Part shown: one piece after another, positions 2,717 to 55,210 of the stretch
Layout: each line of letters starts with the position of its first letter
How positions within the stretch are numbered: the stretch's first letter is position 1
Origin: an uncultured Clostridia bacterium
Lineage (GTDB): Bacteria > Bacillota > Clostridia > Christensenellales > UBA1242
Direction: 5' to 3'
Assembly: GCA_944362545.1 (NCBI GenBank)
Contig: CALVTJ010000003.1
Location: 54,006 to 118,005, forward strand
DNA: 64,000 bases
Translations under genes and position numbers: made by a program
Notes under the pieces: generated by a model
The model's input: the letters and a program-made list of their open reading frames with translations, nothing else
What the model was told of the DNA's origin: nothing
Databases searched by the model: none

Positions 2717-3823
2717 ATGATATTTTGGTATATTTTGCTTGCCATTGCCATTCTGCTTCTTATGGTGCTCATTCATGAGTTTGGGCATTATGTTGTCGGC
2801 AAAATTTTGAAGTTTAAGATAACCGAATTTTCCATTGGTTTTGGTTTTCCTATCTTCTCTAAGACAAACAAAAAAACGGGAGAAAAATTTTCTCTTCGTA
2901 TTTTTCCATTGGGCGGTTATTGTGCTTTTGATGGCGAAGAAGATGGCGAGTCAACATCGCCGACTGCTTTCAATAATCAAAAACCTTGGAAGCGCATTTT
3001 GGTGTTTTTTGCCGGTGTGACAGCAAATTTTATCACTGCCATCATTTTTTCGTGGGTGCTTTTGTGCACGATAGGCTATGATGTTCCACAGATTGCCAGA
3101 TTTGATACCACAAACTATCTCAATCCATATGAAGTAGGCGATGTGATTGTTGCCATTGATGGACAAAAAATTGATTTTGCTTTTGGTGAAAATTTTGTTC
3201 CGCTTGTAAATGAACAGAAGGTTTTGGCGCAAGACTATTATGAAGAAAACGGGGTGGACACACAAGACAAATATACCTTTGACATGTCAGTCAAGCGTGA
3301 TGGGGAAACGGTCAATTTGACAATTGTGGTCTATCCTGTTGTGCAGAGCAACGATGATGGAACGGAATATATAAATTGCATGATTGGTTTGGAATCTGCT
3401 GAAGGGGAAGAGCCTTGCACTGTTGCCTATGTCTATGATGCGTGGTCGGGTTTTTGTCGCTCATTTGAAATGGCATTTGGTTTTGCGTGGGTGGTTTTGA
3501 AGAGTTTGTGGATGCTCATCACCTTTCAACTTCCAATTTCACAAATGGGCGGAACGATTGCCACAATTTCCGCCATTGCGACATATGCTTCAGAGAGTTT
3601 GTCAACGCTTTTGGTGTTGATTCCTGCTATTGCGGCAAACTTGGCGGTGTTCAACATTCTGCCATTTCCGGCACTTGATGGCTCTCATGTGTTGTTTACA
3701 TTGATTGAATGGATAAGGGGCAAGCCAATCAACAGAAAGGTGGAAAACATGATTCACACTGTCGGCATTTGCGTTTTGTTTGCATTTGTCATCATTGTTG
3801 ACATTTTGCATTTTGTTTTGTAA
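2717..3823 (+). CDS. rseP: RIP metalloprotease RseP (M50 family)
   Basis: HEFGH zinc motif, PLGGY, NILPFPALDG, PDZ-like middle region. Confidence 0.95.
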   Translation: MIFWYILLAIAILLLMVLIHEFGHYVVGKILKFKITEFSIGFGFPIFSKTNKKTGEKFSLRIFPLGGYCAFDGEEDGESTSPTAFNNQKPWKRILVFFAGVTANFITAIIFSWVLLCTIGYDVPQIARFDTTNYLNPYEVGDVIVAIDGQKIDFAFGENFVPLVNEQKVLAQDYYEENGVDTQDKYTFDMSVKRDGETVNLTIVVYPVVQSNDDGTEYINCMIGLESAEGEEPCTVAYVYDAWSGFCRSFEMAFGFAWVVLKSLWMLITFQLPISQMGGTIATISAIATYASESLSTLLVLIPAIAANLAVFNILPFPALDGSHVLFTLIEWIRGKPINRKVENMIHTVGICVLFAFVIIVDILHFVL

Positions 3824-3846
3824 AGTCTGCATTTGCGGACTTTTTT
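3822..3846 (+). terminator. Intrinsic terminator after rseP
   Basis: AAAGTCTGCA-TT-TGCGGACTTT stem followed by a T-run. Confidence 0.7.
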
Positions 3847-3847
3847 C

Positions 3848-3876
3848 TTGACAAAACTTTAGGGATATTTTAGAAT
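3848..3876 (+). promoter_or_regulatory. sigmaA promoter of the PolC-like gene (probably leaderless)
   Basis: TTGACA(3848)-17 bp-TAGAAT(3871); ATG 6 nt downstream, no SD. Confidence 0.7.
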
Positions 3877-3882
3877 TATAGC

Positions 3883-5418
3883 ATGAATTTCGGAGAAGAA
3901 TTTTCTGCCAGGTTTGGCGACAAATATCAGTTTTTGGAACTCAAAGAAGTGGAAGCAAACAAAAAAAACGGAGTTTGCATTGTGACTTTTTTGTATCCTT
4001 CAACGCTGAAAGAACTTTCGACCGAAGAGAAAAATGAAATTATTTTATGGTTGAAAGAAAATTTGAAACTTGAAAAATTGACACTGAAAGTCAAGTTTAT
4101 GCGTGCTTTTGTTGAAGAAAAATTGATAAGAAAAACAATTCATGAATTTTTTGAGAACAGATATAAACTTGTAAATACCTATCTTGCTGACCGTGACATT
4201 TCGGTCAAAATCACAGAGATAGATGTTGTGGTAGAAATTGAAGTTAGCACAAGACTGAACAAATATTTTGAAGAACACAAAATTGTAAACGAACTTGCAA
4301 AACATTTGAAAGACAACTTTCTTGTCGATTTTTTGGTGACAGTAAAAGAAAATGCTGAATTTGTCGATGATGTTGACATTGAAAATGTGGAGATAAAAGC
4401 AAGATATAATGTTCCAAAAAGATATAAGGTAGAGATTGTCAAAAATGTAGTTGGCAAGGATATTATTCCAAGTCCGGAATACATAAATTTTGTCAAATCT
4501 CCGAAAAAGTCGGTCATTATTGCTGGATTTATCAAAAAGATAGAACGCCGTGAATTTGTCATGAAAAAGGGCAAGAAAGCCGGTCAACCAAGGACTTATT
4601 TTACTATGCAAATTGCCGATGGAAAAGGTAAAATGGATTGCGTTTATTTCAGTTCAAAGTCAAATGTTGCGGTTATGGATGCACTTGAAGAATATATGTA
4701 TATTTTGCTTCAAGGGGATGTTAAACTCAACAATTTGGGGAAACTAAGCATGATTGTGCAAAAGATTGCACTTGCAAATCAGGTAGAACAGGAAGAAGAA
4801 ACCAAAACAAATATACAAACTGCCGAGCCTGTGGTTAAGGTGGAAAAACTCACTGCACTCGAACAGGACAACATGTTTGGTCAACATGTGAGATACAGCC
4901 AAAAGATTATGAGCAAACCTATTGTTGTATTTGACTTTGAAACGACAGGTCTTTCGCCGGAAACCGACCAAATCATTGAAATTGGTGCGGTCAAGGTGGT
5001 AAGTGGAAACATTGTGGAAAAGTTTTCTTCGTTTGTAAGACCGACAATCAAACTTCCGCGCGACATAACGGAACTTACCGGCATCACTCAAGACATGGTG
5101 GAAGATGCTCCGCCGGCTGACCTTGTCATTCGCGATTTTTATAACTTCACGCGCGGTTGTGTGCTTAGCGGTTATAACATCATCAGATTTGATATGCTCT
5201 TTTTGAAGCGAGAAGGTGATAACATTGGGCTCGAATTTGACAATGATGTGATTGACACTTACAATGAAGCATTGGTGTCAAGACTTCATGTGACAAATTA
5301 CAAATTGGGCTCGGTGGCAAAATATTTAGGCATTTCCTTGGAAGGAGCGCACAGAGCATGGAATGATGCCTATGCGACCGCTCAGGTGCTTTTAAAACTC
5401 AATGAAGTTAAAAAATAA
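3883..5418 (+). CDS. PolC-derived 3'-5' exonuclease (PolC NTD + OB fold + DEDDh exonuclease; no PHP or polymerase core)
   Basis: Occupies the polC position (rseP-X-rimP); OB-like region at about aa 190-300; ExoI DFETTG, ExoII GYNIIRFD, ExoIII HRAWNDA; stops at 511 aa. Confidence 0.85.
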   Translation: MNFGEEFSARFGDKYQFLELKEVEANKKNGVCIVTFLYPSTLKELSTEEKNEIILWLKENLKLEKLTLKVKFMRAFVEEKLIRKTIHEFFENRYKLVNTYLADRDISVKITEIDVVVEIEVSTRLNKYFEEHKIVNELAKHLKDNFLVDFLVTVKENAEFVDDVDIENVEIKARYNVPKRYKVEIVKNVVGKDIIPSPEYINFVKSPKKSVIIAGFIKKIERREFVMKKGKKAGQPRTYFTMQIADGKGKMDCVYFSSKSNVAVMDALEEYMYILLQGDVKLNNLGKLSMIVQKIALANQVEQEEETKTNIQTAEPVVKVEKLTALEQDNMFGQHVRYSQKIMSKPIVVFDFETTGLSPETDQIIEIGAVKVVSGNIVEKFSSFVRPTIKLPRDITELTGITQDMVEDAPPADLVIRDFYNFTRGCVLSGYNIIRFDMLFLKREGDNIGLEFDNDVIDTYNEALVSRLHVTNYKLGSVAKYLGISLEGAHRAWNDAYATAQVLLKLNEVKK

Positions 5419-5534
5419 AACCAATTTTTGAAAAATTTTCTGCTTATTGTTCAAATTTTGACATTGAAAACAAAAAAATTTTCTCAAAAATCTTAAAAAA
5501 TAGAGATTTCGGCGTAAAAAAGTGTGAAAAAGTG

Positions 5535-5563
5535 TTGATTTTTCCGGTTCTATAGGCTATAAT
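5535..5563 (+). promoter_or_regulatory. sigmaA promoter of the rimP-nusA-infB operon
   Basis: TTGATT-17 bp-TATAAT. Confidence 0.65.
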
Positions 5564-5580
5564 AATTATATCTTGACAAG

Positions 5581-5608
5581 GAGTGGGCAAATCTTTTGCT
5601 CACTCTTT
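5581..5608 (+). promoter_or_regulatory. rimP leader hairpin (GAGTGGG...CACTC-TTT attenuator-like element typical of Bacillota)
   Basis: GAGTGGGCAAA-tct-TTTGCTCACTC-TTT between the promoter and the rimP SD. Confidence 0.65.
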
Positions 5609-5638
5609 GTGTTAAGTAGGCATTTTTTGGAGGTTTAA

Positions 5639-6097
5639 ATGGCAAAAGTAAAGCAAATTTGCGAAGAAAAACTGAGACCTGTCATTGAGCAGATGGGTTA
5701 TGACCTTGTCGATGTCAACTATGTGAAAGAAAATGGCGGAATGTCACTTATCTTCACAATTGACAAAGATGGTGGAGTTGGTGTGGATGATTGCGAAGTG
5801 GTAAACAAAACACTCGACCCGCTTCTTGATGAACTCAATCCAACCGATGACAAGCCTTACACATTGGTGGTAAGTTCTCCTGGACTTGACAGACCGCTCA
5901 AAACCGACCGTGATTTAAGAAGACATTTAAAAGAAGAGGTGGATGTCACGCTCTTTGCCAAACTTGATGGCAAAAAGGTTTTCACTGGTGTGCTTGAAAA
6001 ATTTGATGAAAAAAGCATAACGCTGAAAACTGACAAAAGTGAAGTTGTTTTAGACCGAGAAAAAATTGCTTCAATCAAACTTGTGATTAAATTTTAA
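5639..6097 (+). CDS. rimP: Ribosome maturation factor RimP
   Basis: IDK.GGV..DDC, VSSPGLDRPL; precedes nusA. Confidence 0.96.
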   Translation: MAKVKQICEEKLRPVIEQMGYDLVDVNYVKENGGMSLIFTIDKDGGVGVDDCEVVNKTLDPLLDELNPTDDKPYTLVVSSPGLDRPLKTDRDLRRHLKEEVDVTLFAKLDGKKVFTGVLEKFDEKSITLKTDKSEVVLDREKIASIKLVIKF

Positions 6098-6107
6098 GGA
6101 GTAAAAA

Positions 6108-7310
6108 ATGGTAAACAAAGATTTCTTTAAGGCACTTGATGACCTTGAAACTGAAAGAAAAATCAACAAAGAGGTGTTTATTCAAACACTTGAAACTGCT
6201 TTGACTTCCGCTTACAAAAAAATGTATGGAGAGGCAAAGTCGGCAATGGTAAAACTTTATCCAGAAAGAAATACAATAAGAATTTTCTCTTACAAAACGG
6301 TTGTGGATGAGGTTGAAGACAATGACAAGCAAATCTCTTTGCAAGATGCAAAGGAAATAAAAAAATCCTACAAAATTGGCGATATTGTGGCTGTTGAAGA
6401 ATCAACAAAGGACTTTGGAAGAATTGCTGCTCAAACTGCAAAGCAGGTCGTTATGCAAAAGTTGAAGGAAATTGAAAAACAGAATGCTCTCAGTGAACTT
6501 TCTGAAAAAGAAGATGAACTTTTGACAACGGTTGTAAAGCGTATTGATGGTGGAATTATTTATGTTCAAATTCCAAACACAAACACCGAAGGGGTGATGA
6601 TGCCAAGTGACCAAATCCCTGGCGACAACTTTCATGTTGGGGATAGAGTAAAGGTTTATGTAAAAAAGATTAGAGATTCTTATCATGGACCTCAAATTCA
6701 GGTTTCAAGAAGCAACATTGGTTTTGTGAGAAAACTTTTTGAACTTGAAATTCCTGAAGTGGCAAGCGGAGAAGTAAAGATCAAAAACATTGCTCGTGAT
6801 CCTGGCAAGAGAGCAAAAGTTGCTGTCTTTTCTGACAGACCAAATGTGGATGCAATTGGTGCGTGCGTTGGAAATCGTGGCACAAGAATCAACACTATTA
6901 TAAACGAACTTAACGGCGAAAAGATTGACCTTGTGGAATACTCTGATGACCCGCTTGAATATATTGCAAGAGCATTGAGTCCAGCGAAAGTTTTGTCAGT
7001 TGAAACAAATGACAGTTTGAATATGTCACAAGTGATTGTTCCTGATGACAAATTGTCACTTGCAATCGGCAAAGGTGGACAGAATGTTAGACTCGCAGCA
7101 AAATTGACAGGCTGGAAGATTGATGTTAAACCTGAAAGTTATATCAAACCAAAGACTGAAGTTGACAACACCGATGTGGATTATGAACTTACAGAACTTC
7201 CTGATGACACATCATTTGATATCGGAGATTTGGAAGAACTTGAACCACTTGAAGATGAGACAGATGAAACAAACGGCAGTTCCGAAACAACAGAAGACGA
7301 AAAAAAATAA
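6108..7310 (+). CDS. nusA: Transcription factor NusA
   Basis: FGRIAAQTAKQV, S1 and KH domains, AIGKGGQNVRLAAKLTGWKID; acidic tail. Confidence 0.98.
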   Translation: MVNKDFFKALDDLETERKINKEVFIQTLETALTSAYKKMYGEAKSAMVKLYPERNTIRIFSYKTVVDEVEDNDKQISLQDAKEIKKSYKIGDIVAVEESTKDFGRIAAQTAKQVVMQKLKEIEKQNALSELSEKEDELLTTVVKRIDGGIIYVQIPNTNTEGVMMPSDQIPGDNFHVGDRVKVYVKKIRDSYHGPQIQVSRSNIGFVRKLFELEIPEVASGEVKIKNIARDPGKRAKVAVFSDRPNVDAIGACVGNRGTRINTIINELNGEKIDLVEYSDDPLEYIARALSPAKVLSVETNDSLNMSQVIVPDDKLSLAIGKGGQNVRLAAKLTGWKIDVKPESYIKPKTEVDNTDVDYELTELPDDTSFDIGDLEELEPLEDETDETNGSSETTEDEKK

Positions 7311-7324
7311 AGTGAGGTTTGTTT

Positions 7325-7594
7325 ATGCAAAATAAACCAAAAGAAAAGATAAGAATGTGCATTGTTTGCCGTGGGCAGAGTGATAAAAAGACTTTGCTTA
7401 GAATTGTTAAAAACAAAGATGGAGAAATCTTTGTTGACAAAACGGGCAAGGCAAACGGCAGAGGTGCATATGTTTGCAAATCAAAGGAATGTTATCAAAA
7501 ACTTTGCAAACAAAAAGCCCTCAACCGCGCCTTTAAGTGCGATGTTCCTCAAAGCGTTTATGAAATGATTGGAGAAGAAATTGAACAATGTTAA
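7325..7594 (+). CDS. ylxR: YlxR/RnpM RNA-binding protein
   Basis: RMCIVCR..K..LLRIV, GRGAYVC; follows nusA. Confidence 0.93.
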   Translation: MQNKPKEKIRMCIVCRGQSDKKTLLRIVKNKDGEIFVDKTGKANGRGAYVCKSKECYQKLCKQKALNRAFKCDVPQSVYEMIGEEIEQC

Positions 7595-7871
7595 CGGACT
7601 TTTGTCAATAGCAAGAAAGGCGGGTTATGTCATTATTGGGCAGGACAATTTGACTGATTACAAGAAAAAACTTTATCTTGTCCTGATGGACAAAAACGCT
7701 GGAAACTCGCTTTCTAGAGAAATGCACTTTCTTGCAAAAAAGAACAATATTCCACTTTTGCAGGTGGAAGATTTAGAAAAACTTGTTTCTATCAAAAATT
7801 GCAAAGCAGTTGGCATCAAAAACAAAGCCATAAGCGACAAAATTATTGAAAGTTTGAAAAAAGGAGAATAA
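7581..7871 (+). CDS. ylxQ: L7Ae-family RNA-binding protein YlxQ
   Basis: LLSIARKAG...G motif; TTG start after GGAG; between ylxR and infB. Confidence 0.8.
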   Translation: MNNVNGLLSIARKAGYVIIGQDNLTDYKKKLYLVLMDKNAGNSLSREMHFLAKKNNIPLLQVEDLEKLVSIKNCKAVGIKNKAISDKIIESLKKGE

Positions 7872-53462: not shown

Positions 53463-55210
53463 AAATTAGCAAACTTGTCGGCAAGCGTGTCAAAGAAACA
53501 CCAAACAACGCGACAATCAAAAGTCACATTTTGCTTTTGCGCGCAGGCTATATCAAACAGGTTGGTGCGGGCATTTTTTCTCTACTTCCACCAGCACAGA
53601 GAGTCAGTTTGAAAATTCAAAAAATCATTCGCGAAGAGATGAACAAAATTGGTGGACAAGAAGTGTTGTTTCCTGTCGTTATGCCACGTGAACTTTGGGA
53701 CATGAGTGGAAGATACTCTTCAATCAAAGAAGAAATGGTAAGGTTCAAAGACCGCACAGGGCATGATATGCTTCTTGGCATGACTCATGAAGAGGCTGCG
53801 GTGCACATGATGATGAACACCGCCACAAGTCACGAAGATTTGCCGGTGATGATTTATCAAATTCAAACCAAGTTTCGTGATGAAGCAAGACCAAGAGGCG
53901 GACTTATCAGAGTGAGAGAGTTCACAATGAAAGATGCCTATTCTTTTCATACTTCACAGGAAGATTTGGATGTTTATTACAAAAAGGTGTATGACACCTA
54001 CATAAGAATTTACAAACGCCTTGGCTTTAAAAACTTTGTTGTGGTTGAGGGAGACAACGGTATAATGGGCGGAAAGGTCTCTCATGAGTATATGGAAGTG
54101 ACCGATGTCGGCGAAGACAGCCTTGTTATCTGTCCAAAGTGCGGTTATAGCAGCAACATGGAAGTGGCAGTTTCGGTTAAAGATGAAAACGACCACACCA
54201 TTGCAGGTGAAAAGGAAGAAGTTTTCACTGGCAACGCGCACACCATTGAAGAAGTTTGTAAATTCTTGGAAATAGATGCCAAACACACAGCAAAAGCGGT
54301 GTGCTACAAAACTGCCACAGATGGAAAACTTGTCATTGCCTTTCTTCGTGGCGACCACGAAATCAATGAAAGCAAACTTGCAAAACAGGTCAAAAGCGAG
54401 TTGGAAGCGGTGGATGTTGAAGAAGAATTTAGCTTGCCAGCGGGAAACATCGGCATGCTGAATTTGAATGTTCCAGAAGGCTCACACATCTTCTTTGATT
54501 TGTCACTCAAAGGACTTGAAAACCTTGTGACCGGGGCAAACAAAAAGGATTTTCACATCAAAAATGTCAGCATGACAAGAGATTTGCCTGATGTAAACTA
54601 TGTCGACATCTCACTTGTAAAACAGGGCGAAAAATGTGTTCGTTGTGGTGAAACTCTCAATTTGACAAGGGGAATTGAAATTGGAAACATCTTCCAACTT
54701 GGAACAAAATACACCAAGGCAATGGGTATGAAAGTAAACATGCCGGATGGTTCGGCAAAAGAACCTATCATGGGTTGTTATGGCATTGGCATTGGCAGAT
54801 GTCTTGCCAGCATTGTGGAAGAAAAGGCGGATGACAAGGGGCTTATTTGGCCGATGACAATTGCTCCATGGCAAGTTTACTTGTGTCCACTTCGACTTGA
54901 CAACGAAAATGTCAGCGCCATTGCTGATGAACTCTACAAAAAAATGGAAGAAGCGGGTATGGAAGTTTTGTTTGATGACAGAAATGTATCAGCAGGGATA
55001 AAACTTACAGACAGCGAACTTATGGGCATGCCAATAAGAGTTGTTATCAGTCCAAAAACGCTGTCAAACGGCACGGCAGAAGTGACCATGCGTGGCAATG
55101 AGAAAGAGCCTCTGTTCATTCCTATTGGCGAACTTATTCCAGAACTCAAAGTCATGATTCAAGATGAAATTGATGACATTGAAGAATACGCAAACGGAAA
55201 AAATAACTAG
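53459..55210 (+). CDS. proS: Prolyl-tRNA synthetase (bacterial type, with editing domain)
   Basis: THEE, KFRDE.RPR.GL.R.REF.MKDAYSF, GIEIGNIFQLGTKY, MGCYGIG. Confidence 0.97.
   Translation: MKISKLVGKRVKETPNNATIKSHILLLRAGYIKQVGAGIFSLLPPAQRVSLKIQKIIREEMNKIGGQEVLFPVVMPRELWDMSGRYSSIKEEMVRFKDRTGHDMLLGMTHEEAAVHMMMNTATSHEDLPVMIYQIQTKFRDEARPRGGLIRVREFTMKDAYSFHTSQEDLDVYYKKVYDTYIRIYKRLGFKNFVVVEGDNGIMGGKVSHEYMEVTDVGEDSLVICPKCGYSSNMEVAVSVKDENDHTIAGEKEEVFTGNAHTIEEVCKFLEIDAKHTAKAVCYKTATDGKLVIAFLRGDHEINESKLAKQVKSELEAVDVEEEFSLPAGNIGMLNLNVPEGSHIFFDLSLKGLENLVTGANKKDFHIKNVSMTRDLPDVNYVDISLVKQGEKCVRCGETLNLTRGIEIGNIFQLGTKYTKAMGMKVNMPDGSAKEPIMGCYGIGIGRCLASIVEEKADDKGLIWPMTIAPWQVYLCPLRLDNENVSAIADELYKKMEEAGMEVLFDDRNVSAGIKLTDSELMGMPIRVVISPKTLSNGTAEVTMRGNEKEPLFIPIGELIPELKVMIQDEIDDIEEYANGKNN

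Follow-up and report, generated by a model that had tools for sequence, protein, structure and literature searches.

A polC-derived exonuclease gene without its polymerase in Clostridia lacking PolC: a candidate second proofreader beside DnaE1

[quoted passage not shown] What, then, is the role of a gene that occupies the polC slot of a Clostridia chromosome and encodes a protein of 511 amino acids? The gene lies at 3883–5418 on the plus strand of the window, by which we mean the whole 64,000-nucleotide stretch of DNA that was analyzed (contig CALVTJ010000003.1 of an uncultured Clostridia bacterium, positions 54,006 to 118,005); its product is referred to as P0001, or as the remnant. An earlier reading of the same letters, hereafter the original prediction, inferred that the product could be a dedicated epsilon-like proofreader acting in trans for DnaE. 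Here, we report that the gene is a positional and sequence descendant of polC. It still encodes the N-terminal domain (NTD), the OB fold, and a DEDDh exonuclease, whereas the PHP domain (both halves), polymerase core, HhH module, and C-terminal clamp motif are gone. This short form of PolC is a lineage trait and not an artifact. As for its function, we consider it moderately probable, judging from sequence features, that the remnant is a second proofreader alongside the PHP site of DnaE1, which docks on the clamp and excises 3′ mismatches in trans, with its NTD and OB fold serving for contacts with the replisome or the template.

The open reading frame (ORF) starts with ATG and contains no internal stops. 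In a Pfam scan, only an OB fold (PF01336, residues 211–296, 29 bits against a cut-off of 27) and an RNase_T/DEDDh domain (PF00929, residues 348–503, E = 3.5e-34, 119.1 bits against a cut-off of 24) scored above threshold; the scan returned no match to PHP (PF02811) or to the Pol3 core and HhH models (PF07733, PF17657, and PF14579). Together with profile alignments, this divides the product into four parts, all on the plus strand: a PolC-type NTD (approximately residues 1–165, 3883–4377, identified by hhalign against the NTDs of full PolCs of the same order), a PolC-type OB fold (approximately residues 190–298, 4450–4776, identified by PF01336, hhalign, and a match to the OB fold of structure 3f2b), a variable linker in place of the lost PHP N-terminal half (residues 299–345, 4777–4917), and a DEDDh 3′-5′ exonuclease domain (residues 346–506, 4918–5400). 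The catalytic motifs are VFDFETTG (D351 and E353), RFD (D437), and HRAWND (H490 and D495), and these five residues are invariant in our family alignment A1. The stop codon follows five residues past the exonuclease domain. Among whole-protein models, the best NCBIfam hit of the ORF is PolC itself (NF001688), yet at 157.9 bits against a cut-off of 873; a second whole-protein PolC model scored 144 bits, below its cut-off of 1043. The ORF passed the cut-off for the DnaQ/epsilon-family exonucleases (TIGR00573, 98.2 against 71.5 bits) and stayed below that for dnaQ_proteo (TIGR01406, 60.4 against 222.7 bits).

The descent of the protein emerged from profile-profile comparison with hhalign. The profile of the short family aligned colinearly with PolC over residues 7–569 of 1428 (E = 7.6e-74), and the single large gap in this alignment is the site of the PHP N-terminal half of PolC. 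Since the score of the whole profile is dominated by the exonuclease, the parts of the family were aligned separately. The NTD alone matched the NTD profile of the order's PolCs with 97% probability (E = 1.2e-10, 146 colinear columns), and the OB fold alone matched the PolC OB fold with 99.3% probability (E = 4.9e-20); reversed-sequence controls gave 0.2% and 0.6%, respectively. The linker (residues 296–345) showed no similarity to the PolC PHP-N profile (0.1% probability). The Pfam NI and NII models gave no match to P0001 and a weak match in 1 of 42 short forms. We rejected this as evidence against an NTD, given that only one of six genuine full PolCs of the order (L030, which passes both) reaches their cut-offs. 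Against solved structures, the family profile matched the Thermotoga maritima PolC exonuclease (2p1j, E = 3.4e-60), also Enterococcus faecium PolC (9qpc), and the OB fold of Geobacillus kaustophilus PolC (3f2b, E = 1.2e-6); Escherichia coli epsilon was far weaker (1j53/5fku_D, E ~1e-26). The exonuclease is 40–49% identical to the PolC exonucleases of sister families. The original prediction had described an intact 511-amino-acid ORF at the polC locus, with a PolC-like N-terminal region, an OB fold, and a DEDDh exonuclease carrying DFETTG, RFD, and HRAWND, without a PHP half before the exonuclease and with nothing after it, and each element of this description is borne out by the ORF call, the Pfam hits, the translation, the alignments above, and the synteny described below.

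By Pfam, the gene order in the window is frr-uppS-cdsA-rseP-[ORF]-rimP-nusA-ylxR-L7Ae-infB-rbfA-DHH-truB, and the same order surrounds full-length polC in relatives. The upstream neighbor rseP encodes an M50 peptidase (2717–3823, plus strand; PF02163, E = 3.3e-56), and rimP and nusA (5639–7310, plus strand; assigned by Pfam and synteny) lie downstream, as they do after full-length polC. We sampled 20 short forms and 20 full-length PolCs with their flanks, all from the same taxonomic order. rseP was directly upstream at 19/20 short-form and 18/20 full-PolC loci, and the combination of rseP upstream and rimP downstream was found at 18/20 and 13/20 loci, respectively. As to the two remaining short-form loci, one has the downstream neighbor only and the other is at a contig end.

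A truncated polC might have a trivial origin, namely a decaying pseudogene, an assembly or binning artifact, or one half of a split polC. The source invites such suspicion: the genome is a metagenome-assembled genome (MAG) of 927 kb in nine contigs, estimated from marker genes to be 95% complete, and NCBI pipelines label some of the homologues 'PolC-type DNA polymerase III'. Nevertheless, we found no trace of the rest of the polymerase. Profiles of PolC PHP-N and of PHP-C plus Pol, searched against the six frames of window positions 3500–6200, returned nothing (E ≥1, negative scores), so that the intergenic spacer between the ORF and rimP (5419–5638) is as empty as the original prediction had stated for these ~220 bp. 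Neither a PolC above the NCBIfam cut-off nor a complementary PHP-Pol half was found in the genome. tblastn with five full PolCs retrieved the exonuclease region of the ORF, DnaE (22–25% identity), and a 205-amino-acid exonuclease on contig C2, and nothing else. The genome has one C-family polymerase frame, a full-length 1197-amino-acid DnaE1 on contig C4 with contiguous PHP, Pol3 core, HhH, and C-terminal OB domains (NF005298, 1454 bits against a cut-off of 1260; the cut-off of NF004226 was also passed). These genome-wide polymerase searches led us to reject a split polC.

Assembly and decay were addressed in the same region. When Logan contigs of four sequencing runs were compared with window positions 3000–6500, one contig from an independent study spanned 3000–6499 in one piece, including both gene junctions, with 20 substitutions and a 1-nucleotide intergenic indel, and contigs of two other runs bridged both junctions. 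Within the ORF, 16 of 19 variant sites are synonymous and three are nonsynonymous (A102V, I291V, and S339N), giving a ratio of nonsynonymous to synonymous polymorphism (pN/pS) of 0.049, a rough figure because it derives from pooled contig differences at low depth. The remnant is thus under purifying selection and not decaying. Furthermore, a large protein collection contains 384 relatives, in at least 120 homologous clusters; the best 120 clusters are mostly ~510 amino acids long, 40–64% identical, and aligned with full-length coverage, and many of them are on contigs of more than 100 kb. With more than 100 independent clusters and an independent single contig over 3000–6499, an assembly error is excluded, and a pseudogene, an artifact of assembly or binning, or a split gene is in our judgment scarcely credible.

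How widely is this arrangement shared? The genome counts that follow are samples in which absence means not found in the genomes searched, and related genomes are not independent of one another. PolC above cut-off was found in 0/61 sampled genomes of the family (58 genera, 0.7–1.6 Mb). In the order, full PolC was present in 63/121 genomes and absent from 58/121, and its presence split cleanly by family, each family being either 0/n or n/n; 18 of the 42 sampled families lack PolC. In PolC-less families, P0001 aligns over its full length within frames of ~400–570 amino acids, whereas in PolC-bearing families only approximately residues 336–511 align, in frames of 1113–1512 amino acids. The full-length matches all come from uncultured gut MAGs, named 'Clostridia bacterium', 'uncultured Christensenella sp.', or 'Christensenellaceae bacterium', or assigned to Candidatus Scatosoma, Ca. 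Coproplasma, Ca. Neoclostridium, and Ca. Caccovivens. DnaE1 (NF005298) was detected in 119/121 genomes of the order, with and without PolC; hence, the ancestral state was PolC plus DnaE1.

The two forms are also separated phylogenetically. When eight syntenic housekeeping proteins were concatenated for a tree (32 rows over 2617 columns, after 9/41 rows with less than 40% filled columns had been dropped), short and full forms fell on two sides of one branch (support by the Shimodaira-Hasegawa-like approximate likelihood ratio test, SH-aLRT, of 100), and one change was needed against a mean of ~10 after shuffling. A tree of the exonuclease domain, from which two rows with dead exonucleases were left out, likewise required one change (SH-aLRT 94). 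Both were 'quick' IQ-TREE runs without an outgroup, which left the trees unrooted. As almost all of the class outside this order carries PolC (190/201 genomes of the class have it, and 7 of the 11 misses are from this order), the simplest reading is a single truncation of polC in the ancestor of the short-form clade. According to the original prediction, PHP and polymerase had been cleanly lost while the exonuclease survived, and the Bacillota replisome in question would lack the PolC polymerase. Both proposals are upheld: the searches revealed no full-length polC or PHP-Pol half in this genome or in any of the 61 family genomes, no assembly error, and no lack of PolC homology at the N-terminus. 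The checks it had called for agree, in that pN/pS is low and relatives of full length span the PolC-less families with their architecture intact. With the PolC polymerase lost, DnaE1 is the only replicase candidate, and chromosome replication must therefore rest on DnaE1 alone.

Two genomes of another order of the class (G243 and G270, genus g198, family f76; 2.3 Mb, 96% complete) contain only DnaE-type frames, with no match to the PolC exonuclease or NTD at E up to 1e-10. They may represent a second, independent PolC-less lineage of Clostridia, one without a remnant.

What could a PolC without a polymerase do beside DnaE1? One clue is a motif that has changed place. All 20 full PolCs examined from sister families carry Q-x-[ST]-L-[FL] at the extreme C-terminus (position 1424 of 1428). 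Truncation has removed it from the short forms, whose C-terminal ends are without a clamp-type motif. At one aligned column of the linker, 38/43 short forms and 16/21 lineage representatives have Q-x-x-[LMIFV]-[FLYV], a pattern with a background rate of 0.0034 per position. In P0001 it reads QDNMF (Q328–F332, 4864–4878, plus strand) and is predicted from the aligned column to be a pentapeptide of the β-clamp-binding type, whose consensus we take it to fit. The motif lies ~15 residues before the exonuclease, and Q328 is nearly invariant while the rest of the linker is poorly conserved. The DnaQ of mycobacteria has a related clamp motif, Q[Y/L]ALF (PMC11348249). The PolC exonuclease is an insertion into a loop of the PHP domain (PMC5636811), so its two ends must lie close together; a motif just before the exonuclease would accordingly sit roughly where epsilon-type proteins carry theirs after it. 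We suggest that a putative clamp-binding motif re-arose in the new linker between OB fold and exonuclease after the C-terminal one had been lost.

From these elements, a mechanism can be sketched. The remnant would remain at the replication fork as a separate subunit, docked on the β clamp next to DnaE1 by its linker motif. Its exonuclease would clear 3′ mismatches in trans, and the OB fold and NTD would supply contacts with the template or the replisome, which may be what selection chiefly preserves in lineages with a dead exonuclease. DnaE1 appears to have a proofreader of its own. All nine PHP metal ligands of the DnaE in this genome are identical to those of Taq DnaE, which carries a full active PHP set (PMC5636811), and the metal site HHDHEHCDH is present in 19/19 PolC-less and 19/19 PolC-bearing DnaE1s of the order (3/40 loci, L174, L187, and L200, were dropped by a frame filter). 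The remnant would hence be the second of two proofreaders, and we rejected the idea that it compensates for a dead PHP site of DnaE1.

Several observations weigh against this proofreading model. With the PHP site complete in all 19 PolC-less lineages surveyed, no proofreading gap is left to fill. The remnant ends with its exonuclease domain and is without the C-terminal tail by which epsilon binds alpha. Five of the 21 representatives have no linker motif, and no obvious substitute was seen elsewhere in them. DnaE1 shows almost no clade-specific remodeling that would suggest a new docking site; what separates PolC-less from PolC-bearing forms is three near-fixed substitutions, one short insertion around residue 496, and a difference of ~30 residues in the median length, and remodeling of DnaE1 in the PolC-less clade was rejected as a candidate on this basis. 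In mycobacterial DnaQ, the clamp motif is dispensable for the antimutator effect (PMC11348249), and the motif alone is therefore no proof of mechanism. Lastly, two families have lost the catalytic residues and kept the ORF, so that something other than catalysis maintains the gene there.

These exo-dead remnants belong to families f42 (L023 and L164) and f26 (L024 and L165). All or most of their DEDDh residues are replaced, yet they are intact ORFs of 485–547 amino acids in the polC slot that align end to end, in 2/2 genomes examined per family, and the f42 pair retains a Q-x-x-F-type linker motif. Since the ORF is kept while the exonuclease is dead, some non-catalytic role must also be selected. 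This raises an alternative in which the remnant is a structural, mainly non-catalytic subunit of the replisome: NTD, OB fold, and clamp docking would be selected, for instance as a tether that keeps DnaE1 or the template at the clamp or the clamp loader, and the exonuclease would be optional. In an exo-dead pair of one genus, the three domains are equally conserved (0.42, 0.42, and 0.43), in contrast to an exo-intact pair of one genus, in which the exonuclease is the most conserved (0.73 versus 0.48 and 0.58). To compare constraint among domains, we divided the mean pairwise identity of each domain by the identity of housekeeping markers in the same genome pairs. On this scale, conservation of the NTD is higher among short forms (0.42) than among full PolCs (0.28), as the structural alternative would have it. 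The OB fold scored 0.55 in short forms and 0.62 in full PolC. By contrast, the exonuclease as a whole speaks for catalysis: it is about as constrained in short forms (0.91, or 1.00 without the two exo-dead rows) as in real PolC (0.99), and the DEDDh pentad is intact in 41/43 short forms and in 19/21 lineage representatives. On balance, we regard a mainly structural subunit as unlikely, albeit worth weighing, and return to it below.

Two further exonucleases were noted. The 205-amino-acid protein on contig C2, P0003 (G000:C2:43529-44026; L003:1468-2085, minus strand), is a second stand-alone DEDDh exonuclease. Among models, it matches PRK06807 and the PolC exonuclease best, and it forms a long separate branch in the exonuclease tree; frames of ~200 amino acids similar to it were found in only a few genomes of the family. 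In family f26, the PolC remnant of which is exo-dead, one genome (G085) encodes a 449-amino-acid protein (L166:2085-3434) with an intact N-terminal DEDDh exonuclease and a C-terminal extension of ~270 amino acids.

The structural alternative also touches on the NTD. The original prediction had stated that the NTD of PolC is implicated in binding the tau subunit. This contact has been proposed, the NTD being regarded as a domain pair related to tau domain V that may contact the clamp loader (PMC3919608); it is a proposal of the literature and not a demonstrated fact, and the statement holds in that form only. We compared NTD profiles with the C-terminal extensions (145–229 residues) found in DnaX of this order, 19 proteins in all. 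The NTD of full PolC matched with 84.7% probability (hhalign, E = 6.7e-6) and that of the short form weakly, with 43% (E = 2.5e-4), while reversed controls reached at most 1.2%. The comparison is suggestive of a relationship between the remnant NTD and the tau-type region of DnaX and fits the published one; the weakness of the match counts against giving it much weight. The DnaX of the genus itself is short (~379–410 amino acids; G000:C1:30564-31625, L051:1468-2607, minus strand, with recR downstream). It ends after the AAA+, lid, and domain III regions, whereas the 19 other aligned DnaX proteins extend 145–229 residues further, and its tau-type C-terminal region thus seems to have been lost. 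Since this whole region is gone, the NTD of the remnant may be the only tau-V-like module left in the genus and may have taken over the tethering of the polymerase. Short DnaX frames (381–410 amino acids) were seen in three PolC-less lineages only (this genus, family f17, and genome G139); most PolC-less families keep DnaX frames of 500–600 amino acids, and a short DnaX was rejected as a general companion of PolC loss. In a bolder version of the structural alternative, the remnant would be an obligatory non-polymerase subunit of a hitherto unrecognized DnaE1-only Firmicute replisome. NTD, OB fold, and clamp motif would organize the clamp, the template, and DnaE1, with the exonuclease as an accessory that some lineages have already inactivated. 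We hold this to be doubtful.

Another possibility is that the protein works away from the fork, as a clamp-associated 3′-5′ exonuclease in repair or end processing, such as mismatch-repair excision or the processing of gaps or flaps. Many pathways employ DEDDh exonucleases with OB folds at the ends of single-stranded DNA, and clamp motifs are common among repair proteins. The genome has MutS and Pol I, and the gene stands outside any dnaE operon behind a promoter-like site of its own. However, the gene descends from a replicase and keeps the replicase slot, and each of its domains is most closely related to the corresponding part of PolC. Moreover, trans proofreading has a precedent for exactly the PolC exonuclease (PMC5627055). 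A role in repair alone is therefore quite improbable in our estimate, and we continue to favor a second proofreader at the fork.

The promoter-like site, TTGACA-17-TAGAAT, lies at 3848–3876 (plus strand), six nucleotides before the ATG, and follows a terminator-like hairpin with a T run behind rseP (3822–3843, plus strand; from a consensus scan only). The original prediction had assigned the gene its own promoter; the site does match the consensus at 11/12 positions, and it is a consensus match only. We noted that no Shine-Dalgarno core is present between the –10-like hexamer and the ATG (window positions 3848–3885). The mRNA of the remnant may be leaderless, judging from this spacing, with its start at 3883. 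Of 21 loci compared, two have this promoter-to-ATG arrangement, the present one and that of the same-genus relative L027. In the spacer downstream of the gene, a consensus scan placed a promoter-like site for rimP, TTGATT-17-TATAAT, at 5535–5563. Farther downstream, the ORF at 7569–7871 between ylxR and infB has a weak L7Ae match (16.7 bits against a cut-off of 22.1) and is probably the usual YlxQ-type protein of this operon.

The arrangement described here, DnaE1 with a PolC-derived exonuclease in place of PolC plus DnaE1, contradicts the textbook picture of Firmicute replication and makes the clade a natural experiment on the need for the PolC polymerase. A fused proofreader that became a separate subunit and re-acquired a clamp motif would also make the origin of epsilon-like subunits testable. 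Furthermore, the clade allows PolC to be separated from the gene-strand bias that has been linked to it (PMC11040001). In the genome studied here, ~76% of 678 long ORFs are co-oriented, an upper-bound estimate that allows at most one strand switch per contig, and a gene-strand bias of the Firmicute type seems to be maintained in the absence of the PolC polymerase. PolC-directed antibiotics such as ibezapolstat are predicted to find no target in the gut commensals of the clade, which is relevant to the microbiome-sparing claims in PMC11963600, where such taxa go unmentioned.

The clade would have escaped previous surveys. Two of these list only three systems, namely DnaE1 only, PolC plus DnaE1 (where they place Clostridia), and PolC plus DnaE3; both discarded polymerase-less or truncated fragments, and the more recent one, from 2026, was limited to complete genomes (PMC3919608 and PMC12926913, respectively). 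A Firmicute without PolC has isolated precedent: Desulfotomaculum acetoxidans and Thermaerobacter marianensis were reported in 2014 to lack PolC by BLASTP (PMC4070872). These are single species, for which no NTD-OB-exonuclease remnant is described, in contrast to the 18/42 sampled families of one order here, which lack PolC and retain a conserved remnant. In full-text searches of the literature, we found no description of a PolC remnant or of such a PolC-less clade, although the supplementary tables of the surveys (PMC3919608 and PMC12926913) may list relevant genomes or fragments. The features that appear to be new are the clamp-type motif in the linker between OB fold and exonuclease, replacing the lost C-terminal one, and the two exo-dead families that keep the ORF.

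It remains to set the remnant beside the systems it resembles. With PolC (NF001688/TIGR01405; 9qpc, 3f2b, and 2p1j), it shares the genomic slot and homologous NTD, OB, and DEDDh domains in the same order. It differs in lacking the PHP halves, the palm, thumb, and fingers, the HhH module, and the C-terminal clamp motif, so that it cannot polymerize, and in having its clamp-type motif at a new place. E. coli epsilon (DnaQ) is likewise a stand-alone DEDDh exonuclease with a clamp-type motif next to the domain; the remnant, by contrast, has no C-terminal tail for binding the PHP domain of alpha, has an extra NTD and OB fold, and arose from PolC and not from a dnaQ gene. The exonuclease-less PolCs of Clostridia and Negativicutes (Timinskas et al. 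2014, PMC3919608) also show that the exonuclease insertion is a separable module. They are the reciprocal case, the polymerase having been kept there and the exonuclease here. A PolC frame cut by a contig end in one of our genomes (G225:C22:4-1596) matches the model at 27–408 and then at 607–708, and is of this exonuclease-less kind.

The closest parallels appear to be two systems in which a DEDDh exonuclease works with a DnaE-type polymerase. One is mycobacterial DnaQ, a clamp-binding protein that works in concert with the PHP proofreader of DnaE1 (PMC11348249). Like the remnant, this DEDDh exonuclease occurs alongside a DnaE1 with PHP proofreading and has a clamp-type Q-x-x-L-F motif, predicted in the case of the remnant; it needs no stable binding to alpha and acts as a second proofreader, as the remnant might (PMC11348249). 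Its motif is C-terminal and its BRCT domain essential (PMC11348249), whereas the motif of the remnant precedes the exonuclease and Pfam scans of the remnant and of 42 short-form members found no BRCT, with an NTD and an OB fold instead; the two are of independent origin. In Bacillus subtilis, the PolC exonuclease proofreads DnaE in trans, in a complex of template, DnaE, and PolC (PMC5627055). Here, the exonuclease is of the same lineage as that of the remnant and corrects a DnaE-type polymerase on a shared primer-template (PMC5627055), although it resides within a full PolC and its partner is a DnaE3 without a proofreader of its own. By analogy, trans proofreading is a plausible pre-existing function that the remnant could have kept after the polymerase was lost.

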